Origin: Patescibacteria group bacterium
GTDB taxonomy: Bacteria; Patescibacteriota; Minisyncoccia; UBA6257; 2-01-FULL-56-20
Reading direction: 5' to 3'
DNA length: 64,000 bases
Assembly: GCA_024654525.1 (NCBI GenBank)
Contig: JANLHI010000030.1
Span: 80,437 to 144,436 of the forward strand
Shown: positions 6,798 through 56,120 of the stretch, piece by piece
Numbering within the stretch: position 1 is the stretch's first letter
How the letters are laid out: each line of letters opens with the position of its first letter
Program-made: the position numbers and the translations under genes
The notes under the pieces: generated by a model
The model's input: the letters and a program-made list of their open reading frames with translations, nothing else
Told to the model about the DNA's origin: nothing
Database searches by the model: none

Positions 6798-7249
6798 TTT
6801 ATATTATCGCGCTACGGATTATGTCGAACGAGAATTTTTGTAAAAATACCCTGTGGATAATAATGTATTTGACAGTCTTTATAGAGAGGAATATTATAAC
6901 CCAGTACCAATAATTATGACGTTCTCGAGTCACCACTTTTCTATGTTTACGATGCGTACGCTTTCAGCGTGGGTGTTTTGCTATGTCTTTCTTATGAGCA
7001 AGATTACTCAAAAACAAGGGGAGCTTGGTTGGGAAATAAAACCACAGAGAATTTAAGGAAATCACACAAGAATTCAACCAAAGCCTCCTCGATAACAGGA
7101 GGCTTTGTGCATTATGGACGTTCATCTCATTCGCGAATCCCTGCGGATACGCCTATGAGATGAGTGCCCAGACGTTTATACCGGAATCGTCGCAACACTC
7201 TAGAGAAAAAACAATAAAAGTCGCACGCAAGTAAATTAATTCAAATATC

Positions 7250-7939: not shown

Positions 7940-8080
7940 AAGTGCGAAGTGGATAAAACAATGACTTAAATAACTCGTTAAAGTATTCAAAATTGTATAT
8001 TTTTTGTTTGTTTTTCTCAAGCTACAGAGAAATAGGTTTTGTTTTACTCTTAATCGACAAGTATAATTTGTTTTTAGCGT

Positions 8081-8113
8081 GGTGACTCTTTTAGAGTCAC
8101 CATGTTTTTTATT
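8081..8113 (+). terminator. rho-independent terminator downstream of the racemase gene
   Basis: ggtgactc-ttttag-agtcacc hairpin followed by atgttttttattt. Confidence 0.65.
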
Positions 8114-8569
8114 TCTGTGCATAACCTCCTTGACAACTTTTTAACAGAGGAAGATACTTTTTAGTAGAGTTCTTTCAAAATGGTTTTTCGGCTGTAGGCG
8201 CAAGGAAATTTTTCTTTGCGGCTGCAGCTGAACATGGTCACCAGCTAATGCACCTTTCTTTTCGGAGGAGGATAAACAATTGTGACCAAAAAGCAGAAAC
8301 CAAAAAAATATGCAAAAATTGCATGACATTCAGGGGCTCCAAAAATGGGGTCGAACGTTCACCCGCGGTGATGGTGGAACTCCGTTCCTTGGGGTCTATC
8401 GAGGTTTTCTCGGCATGGGACGTTCGCTGAAGACAATCCACGGCATTGGATAACCAGCGAAAAAAGGGCTTAATGCCCGAAACATTTAGTGCCGCATTTC
8501 TTCATTGATTTGCGGCACTTCCATTTTTAATAATTGCATTCCTCAAAATTTTGTGTAAGGTGATAAGAT

Positions 8570-9304
8570 ATGAATCGCGCATTGGTTCCCATGTCTCGCC
8601 TTGAGCTTGTGAAGCAGAGTATTGCTCCGCTCAATTTTGCTCGTGAGACATTTATTAAAAAACTTCTTCGTTATAATGTAGTGCCGGTTTTTGTTTCCTC
8701 GCTCTTTCCAAAAGAAATGGTGGAGAAATTATACAATGAGTGTCAGGGTATATTTTGTATGGGAGGAGCGGATTTTAATTCAAATGTATACGGAGAGGAA
8801 CCGCATCTAAAAACGGAAGCAACGGAACCTTTGCGCGACGAACTTGAATTGCATCTTATTCGGAAAGCGTTAGCCGACAAAAAACCTTTTTTAGGAATTT
8901 GCAGGGGATGCCAAGCGCTTGCAATCGCTTCGGGGGGAACATTATATCAACATATAGAAGGAATTGCCCTCGGAGAAAATCACGGAGCGAGTGAAGGGGG
9001 AACGTATGAGGATCTTGTAAAACAGGTGGGGCATGAGGTTGTTGTTGCGGAAGGAAGCAAGGCACGGGCATTGTTAGGGAAAGAAATAATTCGTACCAAT
9101 TCCGGACATCATCAGGCAGTAAAGTCTGTAGGGGAGGGTATTATTGTTTCAGGTAAGACCAAAGGAGGGATTACAGAGATTATCGAACACACGGCGCAGG
9201 ACTTTTTTTGCTTCGGTATTCAGGCACATCCCGAGGTGGAGGATAATGGGGATTGCGAGCCGTTTTTTAGGGCGTTTGCGGATGCGATGAGTCAAAGAGG
9301 GTAA
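8570..9304 (+). CDS. gamma-glutamyl-gamma-aminobutyrate hydrolase family protein (class I glutamine amidotransferase-like, peptidase C26)
   Basis: 244 aa; PFLGICRGCQALAIASGGTLYQHI carries the catalytic Cys, and the C-terminal HPE motif fits the family. Confidence 0.8.
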   Translation: MNRALVPMSRLELVKQSIAPLNFARETFIKKLLRYNVVPVFVSSLFPKEMVEKLYNECQGIFCMGGADFNSNVYGEEPHLKTEATEPLRDELELHLIRKALADKKPFLGICRGCQALAIASGGTLYQHIEGIALGENHGASEGGTYEDLVKQVGHEVVVAEGSKARALLGKEIIRTNSGHHQAVKSVGEGIIVSGKTKGGITEIIEHTAQDFFCFGIQAHPEVEDNGDCEPFFRAFADAMSQRG

Positions 9305-9500
9305 TGGCTTGACAGTGTTTTCGAAGAGTGTACACTAATTTTACTATAACTTCCATGAAAAATTTCTTGGTATATATGCCTCATATTTTTTCCCTTGCGC
9401 TTTTTGCGTGGATGCTTTGCGTTGTCTTTATCCGCAAGGGAACGGGAGGAATGGTGAAATATCATATACGTTAGAAAGTTGAGAGATAAGAATTTCACCA

Positions 9501-9531
9501 ACACCTCCCCATAAAAGGGAGGTGTTTTGTT
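9501..9531 (+). terminator. rho-independent terminator-like hairpin
   Basis: acacctccc / gggaggtgt 9-bp stem with a cataaaa loop, followed by tttgtt; sits about 200 nt beyond the amidotransferase stop, just after a hairpin-SD-7-codon mini-ORF. Confidence 0.45.
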
Positions 9532-10008
9532 CAGAAATTCACTTCATAAACAGGTCTAGACCGATTTATGAAGTGAGCGTCAGAACAATAAGGTTCCACA
9601 TGCGCTCATTGCTCTTTGGTTTTATGGAAAAAATAGCAGAAAAAAGAAGAGCTCTCTTCCAGAGGGAATGGCCTGTGGTGGAGTTGCCGCAACCGCAACG
9701 AAAAAAAAGGGGGGGTTCCAAACCTATTCCCGAATGGATGCGAAAACCCAAGTACAGGAGTCTTCTCTTGGAGAGAGTCTGAAGTCCGAAGGAACTTGCG
9801 TTCCTTTGGTTTATTATAACCCGAAGGGTGGTGACATGATGAGAAATCACTTTGTTATCACCCTTCCTAACCTTTTCACTATATTCACCATCTGAAGATT
9901 GCCGTATGCGAAACGATAATCTTCAGGTGCGCGCAACCACAAATGAGGGTTGGTACGCCTGTGATAGGGAAAGAAGTTTTTTGAAAACTTTAATAAGGTT
10001 GGAGGATT

Positions 10009-11346
10009 ATGATAGATTTGACACAATGGGTGAACCCCAAAACGAAAAGGACAATTCCGCTCTGCGGAAACGTGGTCCCGCGGAGCGAATTCCGCATGCC
10101 GTGCGAGCCGCTAAAAATCGGGATAGAGCTTGAGCTTCTTGTGCGCGACAAAAAGATGAATTCAGCGGGAATGCGGGCGCAGGAGGTATTCACGTCGGAC
10201 GCGGTGAGTCTCGACGGGAAAATCTCGGTAGAGGCTCTGGTGGATATAGTAGAGGTAAAGACCGACCCACACGCGGGAATTGCACAAGTCGTTCGTGACC
10301 TGCAAGGAACATGCGACGTACTCCAAAATTACTTTGCGAACGAGGGGTGCGCGTTGCTCCCTATTTCGCTCGCACCGCTTGAAGTAATTGGAACACCAAG
10401 TTTTAACCACTGTTTCATAAAGGAAATCGGGGTGAGAAAACATGGCGTGGGGGTATGCCGACTCGATGGTATCGCGAGTACGCAGTTCAATATCGACGTG
10501 GGGGAGGGCAATGCCTTGCTCTACGTCCATAAAGCGTTTCGCGGAATCGTGCCGCTTCTCGTATCACTCACCGCGAACTCGCCTTTCCACGGAGCGCTCA
10601 ACACGCACATGCTCGCGATGCGGGCAAACGTGCGAAGTATGCTCTTGGACTCCGGGGGGTGGATGGCGGAGAATATACACGAGACCGATTGGGCGGAATA
10701 CTTGGAACGGCGGGCGAGAATGTGCTCAATCGGGGCGGTAATGTCTGCGCCGTGGGCGCACAACGGACCGCTTCGGCTTCGGCCGGATAAGGGAATGTGC
10801 CTTGAAATTTCGCCGTGCGAAGTTATCCCGAGGTTTCGGGGTATCGGTACGATGGCGGATTTCTTAAGGAGGGTGGTGTTGGAACTCTTACAGTGCTACA
10901 TCTCGGGCGAGCCTCTCCCTGAATTCTTCGGCGCGAGCGAAGACCTCGCGGTGCAAAAGAATATGCAGGAATCGGTAATTAGGGGGCGGAATGGTACATT
11001 TCTCAATCGCAGTCTCGAAGGCGTATCGACGAGATATGCCCTTGAGCAACTCGTCGAGTGGGTGGACTCATTCAGTGCAAGGAAAGAAGCGAATGGAGAC
11101 CCCTCGTGGCAATGGAGCGAAACGGTTAACGCACTTTGGGACATCCTGGAGAACGGAACGCCCGCGGAACGAATGGTCGCGGAGTTTCAGAGGATCCACG
11201 ATTGTCCCAACCGCTTGGACGGGTGTCCGGCGTGCGGCGACTCCATTCGCGAAGTGTGTCGGGAAGTAGCGAAAGACTTCGCTGTGCAATTCAGTGGGGA
11301 GGCGCCTTGCGAGCAGGAGTGGAAAACTGAAATGATTGTGGCGTAG
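10009..11346 (+). CDS. carboxylate-amine ligase / glutamate-cysteine ligase family 2 (GCS2, YbdK-like) protein
   Basis: 445 aa; N-terminal LKIGIELELLVRD resembles the GCS2 LGVEEEFLLVD start; strong SD (ggagg) 5 nt before the ATG; noticeably GC-rich (about 55%). Confidence 0.45.
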   Translation: MIDLTQWVNPKTKRTIPLCGNVVPRSEFRMPCEPLKIGIELELLVRDKKMNSAGMRAQEVFTSDAVSLDGKISVEALVDIVEVKTDPHAGIAQVVRDLQGTCDVLQNYFANEGCALLPISLAPLEVIGTPSFNHCFIKEIGVRKHGVGVCRLDGIASTQFNIDVGEGNALLYVHKAFRGIVPLLVSLTANSPFHGALNTHMLAMRANVRSMLLDSGGWMAENIHETDWAEYLERRARMCSIGAVMSAPWAHNGPLRLRPDKGMCLEISPCEVIPRFRGIGTMADFLRRVVLELLQCYISGEPLPEFFGASEDLAVQKNMQESVIRGRNGTFLNRSLEGVSTRYALEQLVEWVDSFSARKEANGDPSWQWSETVNALWDILENGTPAERMVAEFQRIHDCPNRLDGCPACGDSIREVCREVAKDFAVQFSGEAPCEQEWKTEMIVA

Positions 11347-25761: not shown

Positions 25762-25822
25762 CGAAGAGGTTTGAGTGTTGTAATTTATTTGTTAACGGGT
25801 GAATATCTGAATAGATTAATTT

Positions 25823-25895
25823 GCCTCGCTAGCTCAATTGGCAGAGCAGCTCCCTCTTAAGGAGACGGTTGTAGGTTCAAGTCCTACGCGAGGCA
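25823..25895 (+). tRNA. tRNA-Lys (anticodon CTT)
   Basis: Cloverleaf folded by hand: 7-bp acceptor stem, D stem gctc/gagc, anticodon loop cTCTTaa with U33 and A37, T loop TTCAAGT. Confidence 0.8.
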
Positions 25896-25950
25896 CCGGC
25901 GGTGTTGTGATAATACGTACCGCAGTTGTAGGATTTGTTTAGGAGATATG

Positions 25951-26024
25951 GCCCCCATAGCTTAGTGGCAAAGCAGCTGCCTTTTAAGCAGTTGATCTAG
26001 GTCCGATTCCTAGTGGGGGCACCA
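25951..26024 (+). tRNA. tRNA-Lys (anticodon TTT), with encoded CCA
   Basis: Acceptor gcccccA/tgggggc, anticodon stem gctgc/gcagt, loop cTTTTaa, T arm ctagg-tccgatt-cctag, 3' end ...gcACCA. Confidence 0.8.
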
Positions 26025-26198
26025 AAATCTGACTTTTTGCAACAATGCCAATTTTTTCCGTGGACGCGCAAAGCGTGCGGATTAGTCCGTTTATTGTTCG
26101 AAAAAGATTCGAGCTTGGTGCAATATGTAAGTAATCTTTGTGATATACTTGGCGAAGTACGGAGACAATAATATTATATTCAGAGGAAGGAGAATGAT

Positions 26199-26432
26199 AT
26201 GAGTATGAGAACTGAGTTCACCGCGGTGAAACATCGCGGTGGTGTTGGATGGAATACGGACGAAATAAGCCGAGTGAGAGGGACATTTAATGGAGTGTAT
26301 TGGAACGTGGATCATCCCGATACGATTGTCATTGCGGAGAATTGCAGTCGAGCATGGAGTAAGTGTGGAGTCCGGGCAGACGTATCTTTACGCGTAGTCA
26401 ATCGAGACGAACTTCCTTTCTCTGTTGCCTAG
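26199..26432 (+). CDS. hypothetical small protein (77 aa)
   Basis: Strong SD (ggaaggag) 7 nt upstream of the ATG; followed by a perfect 11-bp hairpin (catcactagcg...cgctagtgatg) at 26447..26475. Confidence 0.4.
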   Translation: MSMRTEFTAVKHRGGVGWNTDEISRVRGTFNGVYWNVDHPDTIVIAENCSRAWSKCGVRADVSLRVVNRDELPFSVA

Positions 26433-26514
26433 AAGTTTTTCTCACCGCCATCACTAGCGCCAATGCCGCTAGTGATGTTGCATTTTCCACTTATTCTGTT
26501 AAAATATTTTTCAA

Positions 26515-49226: not shown

Positions 49227-49946
49227 TTAAAAACTAAGATACGTTTTCCACTTTTCATAAAGTTCCCGTGTTGCACGCAAATCCCCCACGTTATACTTCG
49301 CAATCTCTATAAATTTTTTTTCCTTGAAAAGCGGACCTACATCATCACCAGTTATTCCCGATACTTTCGGACTTTCGATACCGAATGCCCTTGTCCATAG
49401 ATGAAGACTTCCTTTTCTGCGCGTAGCTCCGTAAAAGGTAAGCTGTTCTAATATATCTATGTGAACCGCGTCCGGACTGTGCTGATAGAGATACCTTCCT
49501 CTCATTAAATCTTTAGTGGGGCGAATGCCATGAATCGCCGATCGGATAAGAAGAAACGGGATATCGAATGAGCGCCCGTTAAATGTCACAAATATCTGAC
49601 ACTTCCGTGCAACTTCCCAAAACTTCTCGAGCATCTCTTTTTCATCCATTGCCTTAAGCAATATTCCATCCTCTTTCGTCTCCTCGCACTTTACTCCCGG
49701 CGCCTGAAAATATACCACCCCTTCATTTTTATGATAATCAAGTATGCCAATCGCGACAATAGACCCGGTAAGTGGAGAAAAACCAAGTCCTGATTTTAAA
49801 TCTTCAAGCGCCGCTTGATATTCTTCTTCAGAATTTGCTTCCCTCTTAATCCAACGCGTAAGCGATTCTTGGGTTGCTTTGTCTAAAGAATCATAGTCCT
49901 CCCCTATTGTTTCTATGTCGAGAATAATGGTTTGCGAGTTTGACAT
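49227..49946 (-). CDS. 3'-5' exonuclease, RNase H-like superfamily (DnaQ/PolB-exo-like)
   Basis: IILDIETIG (Exo I motif), FNGRSFDIPFL and the YQHSPDAVHID motifs. Confidence 0.5.
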   Translation of the reverse strand: MSNSQTIILDIETIGEDYDSLDKATQESLTRWIKREANSEEEYQAALEDLKSGLGFSPLTGSIVAIGILDYHKNEGVVYFQAPGVKCEETKEDGILLKAMDEKEMLEKFWEVARKCQIFVTFNGRSFDIPFLLIRSAIHGIRPTKDLMRGRYLYQHSPDAVHIDILEQLTFYGATRRKGSLHLWTRAFGIESPKVSGITGDDVGPLFKEKKFIEIAKYNVGDLRATRELYEKWKTYLSF

Positions 49947-50057
49947 ATTAGAGATAATACCCTAAAATCTTTGGATTAGAAAACAGTGATTGGTTGAACC
50001 TTTGTATTTTACAGGTCCATTCTAATCTCTATTTTTTAATCTCTATTTTCTAATTCT

Positions 50058-50333
50058 ATGGCACATACAAAAGCCCTCGGCTCAACAAAACTAGGACGCG
50101 ATTCTCGTGCGAAACGCCTTGGCGTCAAAATTCATGACGGTGCGAAAGTTGCCACCGGTCAAATTATAATTCGCCAGCGCGGATCTAAATACACCGAAGG
50201 AGCAAACGTTCGCCGTGGTGCGGATGACACACTTTATGCCGGAAAAGACGGCGTGGTGAAATTCTCCGTAAAAATGAAAGTTTGCTTTGACGGCAACCGC
50301 CGAAAAGCAACCGTGGTGTCCGTTGCGGTATAG
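50058..50333 (+). CDS. rpmA: 50S ribosomal protein L27
   Basis: [24 protein letters not shown]...[15 protein letters not shown]. Confidence 0.9.
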
Positions 50334-50379
50334 CCACAAATATCCACGTTCGTAGTAAGCGCCCCCCCTATGGGCGTTT

Positions 50380-53125: not shown

Positions 53126-54001
53126 ATGAATTTCGCTTTCTTCGGCTCTCCTCAATTCGCCGCAATAGTACTCGATAAGCTTATCGCGGGCGGCTTTGTA
53201 CCATCGGTCGTCATTTGCAATCCCGACCGCCCGGTGGGACGAAAAAAAATAGTGACCGCACCGGCGGTGAAACAGCTCGTAGCAAAGAGTAAAAAGGAAA
53301 TTGAAATTCTCCAACCGGAACGTCTGGATGCCACTTCAACCTTAAAGCTCAAAGCTCAAAGCTATGATATTTTCATTGTCGCCGCCTATTCCAAAATAAT
53401 TCCAAAAGATATCATCGCGCTTCCCCGTTTCGGCGTGATAGGTGTTCACCCATCGCTTCTCCCTCGCCACCGCGGCGCAACACCCATCCAGACCGCAATA
53501 CTCGAAGGCGACGGGGAAACGGGCACTACGCTATTTCTTATGGATGAGAAAATAGATCATGGGGCGATTATCGCGCAAGAAAGGTTGAACCTTTCGCATT
53601 CCCAAGGTTCAACCTTGATGGATCTCGATTACCAGGCACTGGAAGCCAAACTTTCGGAACTTTCGGGCGATTTACTTGTAAAAACACTTCCCGATTTTGT
53701 TGCGGGAAAAATAAAACCGGCACCGCAAGACGATTCAAAGGCAACGCTCACCAAAAAATTCACCACGCAGGATGCATTCGTGGATGAAAAAGATGTTATT
53801 GCTGCAGAATCTGGCAAGGTTCAACCTTGCCAGATGGCCGTAATTGAACGCAAAATCCGCGCCTTCAGCCATGAACCGGGTGCGTGGACTCTGCGAAACG
53901 GAAAACGGGTAAAACTCCTGGAAGCGGAAATCCGCGAGGGGAGGTTGGTGCTCAAAAAAATTCAGATTGAAGGAGGGAAGTCGAGAATTATCCAAGGTTA
54001 A
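53126..54001 (+). CDS. fmt: methionyl-tRNA formyltransferase
   Basis: N-terminal formyltransferase domain (FFGSPQFA..., IGVHPSLLPRHRGATPIQ); the C-terminal domain contains several copies of the AAGGTTNAACCTT palindrome. Confidence 0.9.
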   Translation: MNFAFFGSPQFAAIVLDKLIAGGFVPSVVICNPDRPVGRKKIVTAPAVKQLVAKSKKEIEILQPERLDATSTLKLKAQSYDIFIVAAYSKIIPKDIIALPRFGVIGVHPSLLPRHRGATPIQTAILEGDGETGTTLFLMDEKIDHGAIIAQERLNLSHSQGSTLMDLDYQALEAKLSELSGDLLVKTLPDFVAGKIKPAPQDDSKATLTKKFTTQDAFVDEKDVIAAESGKVQPCQMAVIERKIRAFSHEPGAWTLRNGKRVKLLEAEIREGRLVLKKIQIEGGKSRIIQG

Positions 54002-54029
54002 ACCTTAAGAACCCCAAAGGTTTAATCTT
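53579..54029. repeat. cluster of five copies of the 13-bp palindrome AAGGTT-N-AACCTT (53581, 53604, 53816, 53994; a degenerate copy at 54017)
   Basis: Exact copies aaggttgaacctt, aaggttcaacctt (two), aaggttaaacctt and aaggtttaatctt; the copy at 53811..53833 is a perfect 23-nt palindrome; the first four lie inside the fmt reading frame in different codon phases, and the fourth contains the stop codon. Confidence 0.8.
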
Positions 54030-54039
54030 GGAATCAACA

Positions 54040-54598
54040 GGAAACAGGTTAGAGGTTTTAGATATATTTTAAAAATGGAAAAGCCGGAACACTTGGAAGG
54101 TGCCCCGGCTCTCGTTGGTGCCAGTCCCTCGAGAGGACCGGCGTTAGTGATCGAATGGGGTAATCACCCCGTATTCCTCATTTTGGCGCCGATGAGAAAT
54201 CCCTGTGTTCGTCTCACAGGAGGGAACGGAAACATTCGAGACGCGCAAACCTTGCCGTCCCGATAATCGTGCTAGCTGCTACCCTCAAGCAGTATTAGCA
54301 CTAGGATATCTATTTTTAACGAAGGGTCTCGAGTCCTTCGGTATTGCCCCATATTCTTACTACAAGCGACATCCATACTTGTAGAATATGAAAAGGTTGG
54401 GCCTTTACTTGGTAGAGAACGGTAAAGTGAAAGAACCCTCTAATTCTATCACTCCGACCCCATATGCTATGAGGTCTCTCCTTCCAAGAAAATCAATGAA
54501 CAAATGCTCATCACGTATGCCACAAGGAGTGACACTGCAATGGCAAGATGTATCATAGCACACTCCACAAATACTGTCAACTCTCTATTGGATAGGGG
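54040..54598. ncRNA. candidate structured non-coding RNA region (class undetermined)
   Basis: About 560 bp with no credible ORF, visibly higher GC than flanking DNA, and dense stable hairpins and pseudoknot-compatible pairings (for example ccggctctcg...cgagaggaccgg, gtgat..ggggtaatcacccc, gtgctagctgc...gcagtattagcac, catattc..ctacaag..cttgtagaatatg); a 9-bp long-range complement (cttggaagg at 54091 and ccttccaag at 54484) is compatible with a closing helix; strand not determined. Confidence 0.3.
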
Positions 54599-55243
54599 TT
54601 ATTTTGAATTTTCGAGCGATTTTGCCACCTCTTTCCAGTTGATTACACTCCACCAGTTTTCTATATATTCCGCACGGCGATTTTGATATTTCAAATAATA
54701 GGCATGTTCCCATACATCAATCCCAAGAATCGGACGTGCGCCTGTTGATATCGGGTTATCCTGGTTTGGCGTACTCATAATGAAGAGTTTCCCGTTTCCC
54801 GCAAGCCACACCCATCCACTCCCAAAAAGTCCCGAGGCTATTTTTGTGAATTCCGTTTTAAATGCATTAAAACTTCCAAATGATTTTTCAATTCGTACTG
54901 CACACTCCCCTTGCGGCACATTTGCCGCGCTCCCTGCGTTCGGCTTCATATTTTTCCAAAAAAACGAGTGGTTGAAATGCCCTCCTCCATGATTGCGCAC
55001 CGCGGTGCGAATATCCGCAGGAACCGCATCAAGGTTTGAAAGCAACGATTCAAGCGCCTCAATTTCGGGTTTTCCCGCCATAGTTTCGGCAAAGGAAGGG
55101 TGCTTTTCAATCGCTTCATTCAACTTTGAGACGTACGCCTGGTGGTGCTTTGCGTGATGCACTTCCATGGTACTTGCATCAATATGTGGCTCAAGCGCGT
55201 CGTAGCTATAAGGAAGTTCTGGCAACGAAAAAATTTTATCCAT
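54599..55243 (-). CDS. sodA: Fe/Mn superoxide dismutase
   Basis: [32 protein letters not shown] and the C-terminal DVWEHAYY motif. Confidence 0.9.
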
Positions 55244-55305
55244 AGAAATAAGTGGGAGTGTTTTTGTTATTTATTTATCAATTGCCGTTATAAGTTGTCT
55301 TTGTA

Positions 55306-55413
55306 TTATTGCCCAATAAATATAAGCGCCGCGCTGGGACCGATAAGCCCGACAACGATAATTATTGCAAGCAACCATACAAGGACTTTTTTAATTTTCT
55401 TTGTCTTTGTCAT
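55306..55413 (-). CDS. candidate small membrane peptide (35 aa, MTKTKKIKKVLVWLLAIIIVVGLIGPSAALIFIGQ)
   Basis: Basic N-terminus plus a single TM helix; GGAGG lies directly (1 nt) upstream of the ATG, which is suboptimal spacing; below the ORF-track size cutoff. Confidence 0.2.
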   Translation of the reverse strand: MTKTKKIKKVLVWLLAIIIVVGLIGPSAALIFIGQ

Positions 55414-55518
55414 GCCTCCATTATACACATTGAGGATATTTCAACCATGTGAATAGGGGTTGAGAAACCTGCTCTAACGTGTTAAATTCCCTAGGTGTTT
55501 CGCGCGCACAACAGATTT

Positions 55519-55589
55519 TGGGGGGTCGTCTAGCGGTAGGACATCGCCCTTTGGAGGCGAGTACCGGGGTTCGAATCCCTGCCCCCCAG
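55519..55589 (+). tRNA. tRNA-Gln (anticodon TTG)
   Basis: U1-A72 acceptor pair and G73 (bacterial tRNA-Gln identity features), D stem gtct/ggac, perfect anticodon stem tcgcc/ggcga with loop cTTTGga, T arm cgggg-ttcgaat-ccctg. Confidence 0.8.
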
Positions 55590-55604
55590 CATGAACATTG
55601 GATG

Positions 55605-55622
55605 GTGGCTGTCCCCTTTTCT
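55605..55622. repeat. 18-bp direct repeat gtggctgtccccttttct, copy 1 (15 nt downstream of tRNA-Gln)
   Basis: Exact second copy at 55926..55943; 20 of 21 positions match when extended. Confidence 0.7.
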
Positions 55623-55656
55623 CAAATAAAAAAGGAACGAAGCTTGCTTCGTTCCT
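55623..55656 (-). terminator. rho-independent terminator (minus strand) for the small ORF at 55682..55822
   Basis: ggaacgaag-cttg-cttcgttcc hairpin followed on the minus strand by ttttttattt. Confidence 0.6.
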
Positions 55657-55681
55657 CGTGAAAACTTTTTGATCTGATTCG

Positions 55682-55822
55682 TTACCTGAGACGTAAATCA
55701 AGCCACGTCATAAATGCAGCGATTATCACGCATATCGCGAGAGCGAGTGCTGCATTTTTTGGATTTTTCCAAAGAGCAAGGAACTCCCCGATGCGACGAA
55801 CAACGTACTGAAACATTTTCAT
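55682..55822 (-). CDS. candidate small hydrophobic protein (46 aa, MKMFQYVVRRIGEFLALWKNPKNAALALAICVIIAAFMTWLDLRLR)
   Basis: AGGAAGG SD 4 nt upstream of the ATG and a strong terminator immediately downstream; one predicted TM helix; not in the ORF track (under 60 aa). Confidence 0.35.
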   Translation of the reverse strand: MKMFQYVVRRIGEFLALWKNPKNAALALAICVIIAAFMTWLDLRLR

Positions 55823-55925
55823 AATGCCTTCCTTTTGATTGGTTTAAGTTAACGTTACTCTGAATTACGAAATACCACAAATAGATATTATCATGCAACA
55901 CAGAATACAAAAAAATTGTGGCTGT

Positions 55926-55943
55926 CCCCTTTTCTACTAGGTA
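55926..55943. repeat. 18-bp direct repeat gtggctgtccccttttct, copy 2
   Basis: Identical to 55605..55622; the two copies bracket a 321-bp segment containing the 46-aa ORF and its terminator. Confidence 0.7.
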
Positions 55944-56120
55944 TGCTTTGACCAAACCGTATTAGGTTATAGCGTTTAAATTGCCGATAATAATAAACTT
56001 CTTTTTATATTCAAATAATTGAGCTAGATATTCTTTAAGTAAAGAAAATGGTGGATTCGTAACAATAACATCTGCTTCTTTCCGGACGCATAACGGAATA
56101 ATAAGGGAAAAGGAAGCTGT

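Follow-up and report, generated by a model that had tools for sequence, protein, structure and literature searches.

A candidate non-coding RNA gene with a hairpin-chain fold between fmt and sodA in groundwater Patescibacteria

What does the gap between the convergent genes fmt (+) and sodA (-) contain in a 64,000-nt stretch of a Patescibacteria group bacterium genome (contig JANLHI010000030.1, positions 80,437 to 144,436; hereafter the window), and on which strand does it lie? An earlier note on this DNA had proposed that the gap (54002-54598) holds, from 54040 on, an unannotated structured RNA, either a variant of RNase P RNA, a large ornate RNA or a ribozyme. The idea of an unannotated structured RNA is supported by the analysis presented here, but the focus on the plus strand, the classes proposed and the argument from GC content are not. 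On balance, the gap appears to hold a separate, previously undescribed non-coding RNA (ncRNA) gene of ~480 nt on the minus strand, and comparison with homologous loci suggests that the RNA is most likely fast-evolving and restricted to a few related Liptonbacteria-like groundwater Patescibacteria. Four lines of evidence support this reading: (i) a promoter and a terminator that are kept in relatives, (ii) strand-biased folding in the homologues, (iii) lack of a coding signal and (iv) the presence of 13 colinear hairpins in two homologous loci, L001 and L081. No description of such an RNA was found in the literature.

A sigma-70-type promoter (TTGACA, 17 nt, TGcTATGAT) begins 19 nt past the sodA stop codon (coordinates of all features are given in Table 1). 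It matches the consensus at 11 out of 12 positions and has, in addition, the TG of an extended -10 element. Only 6 sites with at least 11 matches exist in the 64 kb (both strands, i.e. 128 kb searched), and this promoter is the only one among them to combine a 17-nt spacer with the TG. The pattern TTGACAG-N14-TGCTA(T/G)(G/C)AT, with its 17-nt spacer, is found at the same position in all four complete copies of the unit (the window, L001, L081 and L126). At the opposite end lies an intrinsic terminator, whose hairpin is present at the equivalent position in six loci (the window, L001, L081, L082, L126 and L133); a 15-nt sequence in its loop region, GCACCTTCCAAGTGT, is identical in the window and L001. 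Promoter and terminator are thus on one strand and kept in relatives (four to five lineages), as expected of a stand-alone gene. The earlier note had worked mostly on the plus strand, whereas the promoter, the terminator and the stronger fold all lie on the minus strand.

Part of this arrangement could also be explained by a function exerted in cis only. The region would then be a long, structured 3' end of the sodA messenger RNA (mRNA), combined with a bidirectional terminator, and it would shield this mRNA from 3' exonucleases or insulate the convergent sodA and def-fmt units from each other. The terminator does look bidirectional, since the A-rich stretch located 5' of its hairpin would give fmt a U-tract on the other strand, and the terminal hairpin is A-rich on one side and U-rich on the other in every homologue. 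No terminator was found between the sodA stop codon and the RNA promoter in the window, so that sodA transcripts should run on through the RNA region. Furthermore, relatives without the RNA keep just a terminator in the gap, and a function dependent on helices rather than on sequence would suit fast divergence. However, a near-consensus internal promoter kept in four lineages does not fit with such a role, and a promoter aimed at fmt would raise, not lower, convergent interference. In L081 and L001, moreover, sodA has its own terminator before the RNA promoter, which makes the RNA a separate transcription unit in these two loci. Taking both sides into account, we judge a cis-only function to be rather unlikely. 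The interval from the sodA stop codon to the RNA promoter in L126 (3780-3860) contains AT-rich TAATTGG and TAATTAG repeats forming a 22-nt imperfect inverted repeat, which may be the sodA terminator in that genome.

The gap had been described as highly structured, and this description holds. When compared with dinucleotide shuffles, the minus strand of the region folds with a z-score of -4.99 and the plus strand with one of -2.85; the 481-nt RNA alone reaches -6.2 to -6.9 on the minus strand (minimum free energy of -175 kcal/mol). Eighty windows of 480 nt taken elsewhere in the stretch served as a control and gave a mean z-score of -0.75 (sd 1.4); in that scan the RNA scored -6.2 on the minus strand versus -3.7 on the plus strand. 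The predicted fold of the RNA is a chain of ~15 consecutive local stem-loops. In stability, its sense strand exceeds the antisense strand by 20.7 kcal/mol, and it also contains more G-U pairs (22 versus 14). The same tendency was observed among the homologues: the promoter-driven strand is more stable than its complement by 14 to 25 kcal/mol in 5 out of 5 RNAs and has more G-U pairs in 4 out of 5. Asymmetric stability together with extra G-U pairs points to selection acting on an RNA, not on DNA palindromes.

This asymmetry is relevant to a second explanation, according to which the gap is a functionless spacer that has accumulated palindromes, the helices being kept by template switching or palindrome correction at the DNA level. 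Several observations would be in line with it: this genome spreads palindromes such as AAGGTTNAACCTT, even inside fmt; two other gaps of the window have equally extreme folding scores and the same hairpin-chain look; hairpin number is variable, and some close relatives have the unit while others lack it; and covariance models fail to link the window interior to the other RNAs. Yet DNA palindromes would be symmetric, whereas here the promoter-driven strand folds better than its complement and has more G-U pairs. The conservation of promoter and terminator is not expected of a spacer either, and the hairpins are not repeated elsewhere in the window. When 13 intergenic gaps were folded, 10 of the 12 others were essentially unstructured (z-scores of -3.5 to +1.6), the exceptions being 7940-8569 and 9305-10008. 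A functionless spacer consequently appears unlikely. Patescibacteria have very small genomes with little non-coding DNA, and it is therefore improbable that a 0.5-kb unit is idle when the promoter-like site in front of it ranks among the strongest in 64 kb.

Base composition, on the other hand, provides no argument for a structured RNA. The region had been called GC-rich in an AT-rich genome. Its GC content (0.463) is close to that of the window (0.441), of coding DNA (0.446), of fmt (0.485) and of sodA (0.453), and a value of 0.56 is reached only in the 200-nt stretch 54100-54299; the genome itself, at 44% GC, is not strongly AT-rich. Nor is the gap the longest of the window without an open reading frame (ORF), as had been stated: it ranks fifth, after 55244-56120, 25762-26514, 9305-10008 and 7940-8569.

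Relatives were gathered with a sodA anchor in genome contigs (80 loci, of which only L001 proved useful) and with an fmt anchor in metagenome contigs, which gave L081, L082, L126 and L133. The closest fmt and sodA proteins share 58 to 68% identity with those of the window, and most carry the label Candidatus Liptonbacteria. Units of 246 to 537 nt, with 7 to 15 hairpins, were recognized in the sodA-fmt gap of the window and of several relatives (Table 1). Homology between the L001 and L081 units extends from end to end (nhmmer, E = 1e-16), with ~100 near-identical nt at the 5' end and a diverged remainder. Folded separately, both give 13 hairpins in the same order and at nearly the same positions. 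H1 to H3 have the same sequence, whereas in H4 to H13 62 out of 104 pairs, counted in a hand alignment fitted to each sequence's own fold, are changed on both sides, the arms of H10, H11 and H12 being essentially unrelated. A structure-aware pairwise alignment of our own recovered 7 or 8 of the 13 hairpins; alignments based on sequence only were poor, and so were consensus folds derived from MAFFT alignments. Strand asymmetry is a less biased indicator than a structure-fitted alignment.

The sodA-fmt gap was also inspected in relatives that do not have the unit. It is reduced to 132 nt containing only a terminator in L127 and L128, and to 44 nt in L129 to L131. Two further loci, L083 and L084, were rejected as members: their 500-nt gap possesses a terminator but no promoter, and its z-score is -1.6. 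In L144 (Ca. Liptonbacteria JACQKV010000012.1, 3161-3451) the gap is occupied by a 291-nt, nearly perfect long inverted repeat of 62% GC (GCTAGCAGGAAAGCTTTGCGC ... GCGCAGAGCTTTCCTGCTAGC), which is unrelated and stands in place of the hairpin-chain RNA.

The helices named in the earlier note are all present in the sequence. The 9-bp long-range complement exists (54092-54100 pairs with 54480-54488), as do the repeats of the motif CCCCATAT (copies at 54347 and 54458). Several of these elements correspond to hairpins of the minus-strand RNA (Table 1). The loop of the hairpin at 54351..54391 resembles that of the L001 H8 hairpin, AUGGAUGUG; a single-sequence covariance model built from L001 H8-H12 (R1) places it there only with an E value of 0.085. 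By hand, a different hairpin was assigned as the H8 of the window and tentatively equated with CCUGC..GCAGG in L001, UCUGCG..CGCAGG in L081, CCAGC..GCUGG in L126 and CCGCG..CGUAGG in L082; neither R1 nor R2, a second model built from the window interior, gives confirmation of this assignment. A junction motif, AGGG(R)UYU, is common to the window, L001, L081 and L082. The H9 helix is closed by (G/A)U(C/U)...(G/A)AU in four RNAs while its inner pairs vary. The L081 counterpart of H10 is GGGGU[GAUAG]ACCCC, followed by the linker AAUUCGCCCCAUC. As for H12, L001 has GCC..GGC and AC(C)AAC with a different inner helix, L081 is similar, and L126 has CCCGAC..GUCGGG. Since neither R1 nor R2 ties the window interior significantly to the other RNAs, the equivalences proposed for H8, H9, H10, H12 and AGGG(R)UYU in the window are tentative.

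A pseudoknot may tentatively be added to this architecture. In four RNAs, the loop of H8 can pair with the linker following H10, although the sequences involved differ. The pairing was spotted post hoc, after the folds had been viewed, and single shuffle tests gave P values of 0.03 to 0.18 (~0.01 by Fisher combination).

Table 1. Coordinates and main characteristics of the features discussed in the text (loops are in square brackets)
Feature	Locus	Position (strand)	Length	Sequence or remarks	z-score
Sigma-70-type promoter	window	54580->54552 (-)		-35 TTGACA 54580->54575; 17-nt spacer ending TG; -10 TATGAT 54557->54552	
Predicted transcript	window	54546->54066 (-)	~480 nt	start placed ~7 nt past the -10 hexamer by inference	
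Long hairpin	window	54351..54391 (-)		UCAUAUUCUACAAGU[AUGGAUGUC]GCUUGUAGUAAGAAUAUG; 13-bp hairpin of the earlier note, opposite strand	
Hairpin	window	54269..54301 (-)		GUGCUAAUACUGCU[UGAGGGU]AGCAGCUAGCAC; 11-bp hairpin of the earlier note	
H8 hairpin	window	54202..54220 (-)		CCUGUG[AGACGAA]CACAGG, then GGGAUUUCU; assigned by hand	
H9 hairpin	window	54173..54200 (-)		AUUUCUCAU[CGGCGCCAAA]AUGAGGAAU; predicted fold	
H10 hairpin	window	54157..54170 (-)		GGGGU[GAUU]ACCCC, then AUUCGAUCAC; stretch first read as a tmRNA-like 5' end	
H12 hairpin	window	54120..54142 (-)		GCCGGUCCU[CUCGA]GGGACUGGC, then A-rich linker ACCAAC; predicted fold	
Intrinsic terminator	window	54113->54066 (-)		14-bp hairpin 54113->54079, loop CUUCCAA, then UUUUCCAUUUUUAA; abuts fmt	
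Possible H8 loop/linker pairing	L081; L001; L082; window			AUGGGG / CCCCAU; AUGUG / CACAU; GGGCA / UGCCC; CGAA / UUCG	
RNA	L001	3162-3662	~500 nt	sodA-fmt gap, sodA strand	-6.55
RNA	L081 (L140 identical)	4484->3948	~537 nt	sodA-fmt gap, sodA strand	-9.29
RNA	L126	3690->3445	246 nt	sodA-fmt gap, sodA strand	-3.96
RNA, partial	L082	3' part, cut by contig end	348 nt	sodA-fmt gap, sodA strand	-4.6
RNA, partial	L133	terminator end only		sodA-fmt gap	not scored
Small hydrophobic ORF upstream of sodA	window; L127; L129	55306..55428 (-); ~3430->3330; ~4345->4245		no Pfam match	

No sign of protein coding was detected. The gap had been said to lack a plausible ORF, and this was borne out: it contains no ORF longer than 63 aa, has no Pfam match, and none of its frames is kept in the homologues. 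No Shine-Dalgarno site precedes any frame of the RNA, a six-frame peptide comparison of five homologues yielded noise only (<22 bits), and indels in the conserved 5' part, which are not multiples of three, break every frame. The only hints that the region could be the remains of a protein-coding gene, or could encode small proteins, are short ORFs of 52 to 63 aa and a hydrophobic frame of 22 codons that starts with GTG near the 5' terminus of the RNA; against the missing protein family matches, ribosome-binding sites and conserved frames, this explanation is extremely unlikely.

Repeats and mobile elements were considered as well. Matches to the hairpins elsewhere in the 64-kb window were at chance level only (best 18 nt, E = 0.11). 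BLAST of the region against phages and plasmids gave no match, and a scan of viral contigs for the conserved H1 hairpin gave four chance matches whose context did not fit. A 21-nt inverted repeat (86% complementary; 54029-54049 and 54627-54647) brackets the whole region; this is probably a chance occurrence, since one arm lies inside the sodA coding sequence and no counterpart exists in the homologues. A miniature inverted-repeat transposable element or a repetitive extragenic palindromic (REP) element was rejected on the grounds that the hairpins are not repeated in 64 kb and that flanking inverted repeats occur in no homologue.

The covariance search suggested in the earlier note, i.e. for RNase P RNA, transfer-messenger RNA (tmRNA), signal recognition particle (SRP) RNA, 6S RNA, introns and OLE, GOLLD, ROOL or HEARO, gave no match in the window or in the homologues. 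At gathering score, the 4227 Rfam families detected only three tRNAs in the 64-kb window. Searches with lax filters on both strands of 53900-54750 (E values up to 10) and in L001, L081, L126 and L082 (E values up to 5) yielded no relevant match; whatever appeared in the Rfam searches was tRNA or noise. ARAGORN found neither a tmRNA nor a split tRNA in the window. The same Rfam search does pick up class A RNase P RNA in two more distant relatives, L093 and L095 (131 to 136 bits), which indicates that the method works in this lineage and that the RNA studied here is something else.

For these reasons RNase P RNA (RF00010, RF00011) is excluded, there being no match at gathering score, at E values up to 10 in the window or up to 5 in the homologues. 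The resemblance to the CR-I motif that had been noticed comes down to GGAAAAGCCGG, which has 2 mismatches to CR-I GGAAAGUCCGG, lies on the plus strand of the window only and is absent from every homologue; a string like CR-V ACAGAANNCGGCUUA was found on neither strand of the window, and CR-I and CR-V occur in no homologue. A likeness to class A RNase P RNA (RF00010) nevertheless exists in length, in this plus-strand motif and in location, since in L093 (3895-4323, +) and L095 (3895-4318, +), whose fmt is 48 to 49% identical, a genuine class A RNA stands directly after this gene on its strand, with a tRNA gene immediately behind. In contrast, the RNA described here lies on the strand opposite to fmt, has no P1 pairing, and is missing or only 246 nt long in relatives. 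The tmRNA-like 5' end also proved illusory: GGGGU[GAUU]ACCCC forms no more than a simple hairpin, with 5 bp and a loop of 4 nt, and ARAGORN and Rfam were negative. A tmRNA would carry a tag reading frame and a tRNA-like domain, the latter with a GGGG 5' end, a T-arm whose loop has 7 nt and a 3' end in UCCACCA. tmRNA (RF00023, permuted forms included) is excluded, as no T-loop and no 5' or 3' end motif was seen in any homologue. The other candidates fared no better. In 6S RNA, the two ends pair with each other to close one long irregular hairpin of ~150 to 240 nt with a large central bubble; here Rfam gave no match to 6S RNA (RF00013), the ends sit in separate terminal hairpins and lengths are 246 to 537 nt. 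SRP RNA, which is marked by a helix 8 with conserved symmetric and asymmetric loops and a GNRA tetraloop, was dismissed for lack of an Rfam match and of a helix-8-like string within 4 mismatches. OLE, GOLLD, ROOL, HEARO, group II introns and other curated large ncRNAs gave no match among the 4227 Rfam families.

Group I introns in tRNA and tmRNA genes have been reported for Patescibacteria, and some of them escape RF00028 (PMC13011429). Because of such escapes, the missing exon halves of a tRNA or tmRNA carry weight against a group I intron at this locus: there is no RF00028 match at E values up to 10, no split tRNA according to ARAGORN and no T-loop in the homologues, and this candidate was rejected.

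A very divergent universal RNA (RNase P RNA, tmRNA, 6S or SRP RNA) would be in keeping with a promoter strength typical of stable RNA genes, with the fact that none of these four RNAs was detected in the 64-kb window and with the position of genuine RNase P RNA directly downstream of fmt in L093 and L095. Apart from the negative Rfam and ARAGORN results, this is opposed by the lack of any shared CR-I, CR-V, T-loop, tmRNA-end or SRP helix-8 motif and by the location of the L093 and L095 genes on the fmt strand instead of the opposite one. It is further opposed by the predicted folds of the window, L001, L081 and L126 RNAs, in which the 5' and 3' ends are not paired with each other. Nor would a universal RNA vary from 246 to 537 nt or be absent from close relatives, which leaves this explanation with a very low probability. 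The proposal of a ribozyme or large ornate ncRNA is not supported, for another reason. What is predicted is a linear chain of local hairpins whose number varies between relatives, and a variable number of modules without a conserved core argues against a ribozyme, an ornate tertiary fold or a riboswitch-like ligand sensor.

The orientation of the promoter, which faces the 3' end of fmt, raises yet another possibility: the RNA could be the leader of a conditional antisense transcript, read-through into fmt and def lowering their expression, possibly coupled to oxidative stress via sodA. In L001, L081, L082 and L126 the U-tracts after the terminator are interrupted, suggesting leaky termination, and in the window pairing of CCGGUCCUCUCG with CGAGAGCCGG (the bulged helix of the earlier note) would compete with the terminator stem. 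However, inspection of the L001 sequence shows that this pairing is absent there; no conserved core resembling a ligand-binding one was found, and there is no match to an Rfam riboswitch. An antisense leader is therefore very unlikely.

Compared with these alternatives, a separate ncRNA gene remains the reading that we favour. The proposed course of events is as follows. A strong sigma-70-type promoter right after sodA would drive synthesis of a ~480-nt RNA without a conserved reading frame, which would fold into ~15 independent stem-loops and end at a terminator also facing fmt. Promoter, hairpin-chain architecture, terminator and sense-strand stability bias are kept among the homologues, while sequence and hairpin number change fast. 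We infer that the RNA would be abundant and stable and that it would act in trans via its helices, not via a conserved sequence or a catalytic core; its likeliest roles would be those of a scaffold or decoy that binds proteins, for example a nuclease or RNA-binding protein specific for double strands. In the window genome it would also form the 3' untranslated end of sodA transcripts. It is presumably dispensable, since close relatives do without it.

Several points weigh against a separate ncRNA gene. Both transcript ends are deduced from the promoter and the terminator. The representatives amount to four full-length RNAs, one 3' part (L082) and one 3' tail (L133), and the RNA is absent at the sodA-fmt site of L127-L132, L134, L136, L137-L139 and L141-L144. 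The pair counts for L001 and L081 are unable to show broken pairs, owing to the way in which their alignment was fitted. The interior of the window RNA is not significantly alignable to the other RNAs: nhmmer and blastn matched only the L001 terminator, the best or near-best R1 matches in L082, L081 and the window do lie within the RNA and on the correct strand, but with E values of only 0.085 to 0.17 there and up to 0.24 overall, and R2 finds no match in the homologues. Orthology of the window RNA consequently rests on position, promoter, terminator and architecture. In the absence of a shared loop motif, nothing points to a particular binding partner. Finally, since two equally hairpin-rich gaps exist in the window, hairpin chains may be a general property of spacers in this genome.

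These two gaps merit description in their own right. Gap 7940-8569 (+; core ~8165-8535) is hairpin-rich and ORF-poor (z-scores of -6.4 to -7.45), has no Rfam match and lies upstream of a Peptidase_C26/GATase gene (8570..9304). A promoter-like TTGACA-17-GATACT (8130-8158) is present in it, as is a terminator hairpin, GUGCCGCAUUUCUUCAUUGAUUUGCGGCAC; the 12-mer after this hairpin, UUCCAUUUUUAA, also follows the terminator of the RNA studied here. Gap 9305-10008, which separates this Peptidase_C26 gene from a GCS2 (glutamate-cysteine ligase family 2) gene (10009..11346), is likewise hairpin-rich (z-scores of -7.0 on the plus and -9.1 on the minus strand) and without an Rfam match; TTGACA-16-TACACT occurs at 9309-9336, and a terminator spans 9786-9809. 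Two more promoter-like sequences, TTGACA-17-TATTAT at 6869 (+) and TTGACA-17-TAAAAT at 49940 (+), fall within gaps 6798-7249 and 49947-50379 or at their edges; the latter gap folds moderately well (z-score of -3.5 on the plus strand).

The genes beside the three hairpin-rich gaps are sodA, a gamma-glutamyl peptidase-like gene and a glutamate-cysteine ligase-like gene. One could speculate, with little expectation of being right, that the RNA and the gaps 7940-8569 and 9305-10008 belong to one class of abundant, fast-evolving hairpin-chain RNAs in Patescibacteria, encoded near redox- or thiol-related genes and serving as double-stranded decoys or scaffolds for an RNA-binding protein or nuclease of the host or symbiont.

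The flanking genes show some features of their own. fmt (53126..54001, +), the convergent neighbour downstream of the RNA, encodes methionyl-tRNA formyltransferase (Pfam Formyl_trans_N and Formyl_trans_C), and sodA (54599..55243, -), the upstream neighbour on the RNA strand, encodes an Fe/Mn superoxide dismutase (Sod_Fe_N and Sod_Fe_C). Palindromes of the AAGGTTNAACCTT type lie in frame within fmt (53575-53615, 53815-53835, 53990-54032) and are translated as KVQP or RFNL-like insertions; one of them overlaps the fmt stop codon. In the alignment, fmt of L001 (3860-3900) has GGAGGTTTAACCTCC and CGAGGTTAAACCTCG at the equivalent insertion site. Directly upstream of sodA, a small hydrophobic ORF of 33 to 40 aa (...VLVW.LA.I.IVGLIGPSAA..F.G.) is kept in several relatives; its product is probably a small membrane protein made from a transcript shared with sodA.

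Should the transcript prove real, Patescibacteria, a phylum in which RNA biology has hardly been explored, would gain a large ncRNA family, and it would follow that such RNAs can keep their architecture while nearly all sequence similarity between genera is lost. Architecture without sequence similarity would, if true, explain why family-based annotation misses them. The locus is a testable candidate for groundwater metatranscriptomes. It is also a warning to annotators that a loose resemblance to motifs should not be read as RNase P RNA or tmRNA.

How does this RNA compare with known systems? Some small RNAs embedded in 3' untranslated regions, such as MicL and DapZ in enterobacteria, have their own promoter and share the terminator of the mRNA; they are ~80 to 300 nt long, depend on Hfq and base-pair via a conserved single-stranded seed. 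The RNA described here is similar in that its promoter closely follows the upstream gene (19 nt past the stop codon) and its terminator would also serve sodA transcripts. It differs by its length (250 to 540 nt), its almost fully base-paired predicted structure, the lack of a conserved seed and the presence of a separate sodA terminator in L001 and L081. CsrB, RsmY and RsmZ are protein-sequestering RNAs made of repeated stem-loops, most of which carry a conserved GGA in the loop. They are strongly expressed, as the RNA described here would be, and they too vary in stem-loop number between relatives and end with an intrinsic terminator, but no shared loop motif was found here upon inspection of the predicted loops. 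REP elements, bacterial interspersed mosaic elements and BOX elements, which exist in many near-identical copies per genome, resemble the unit by their intergenic position, consecutive stable hairpins, variable number of modules and presence or absence between relatives. In contrast, its hairpins are unique in 64 kb, it is bounded by a promoter and a terminator and one strand is favoured.

OLE, GOLLD, ROOL, HEARO and the raiA motif have conserved cores, multi-stem junctions or pseudoknots and strong covariation over many genomes. The RNA between fmt and sodA, which matches none of them in Rfam, is instead predicted to be a linear chain of local hairpins that vary in number between its roughly five representatives, and little of its sequence is conserved. 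What it has in common with them is a size of several hundred nucleotides, the lack of an ORF, a strong predicted structure, a stand-alone gene with its own promoter and terminator, a narrow phylogenetic range and a function that is not evident from context. With modest confidence, it may be regarded as a new family-level candidate within the orphan structured ncRNAs of bacteria.

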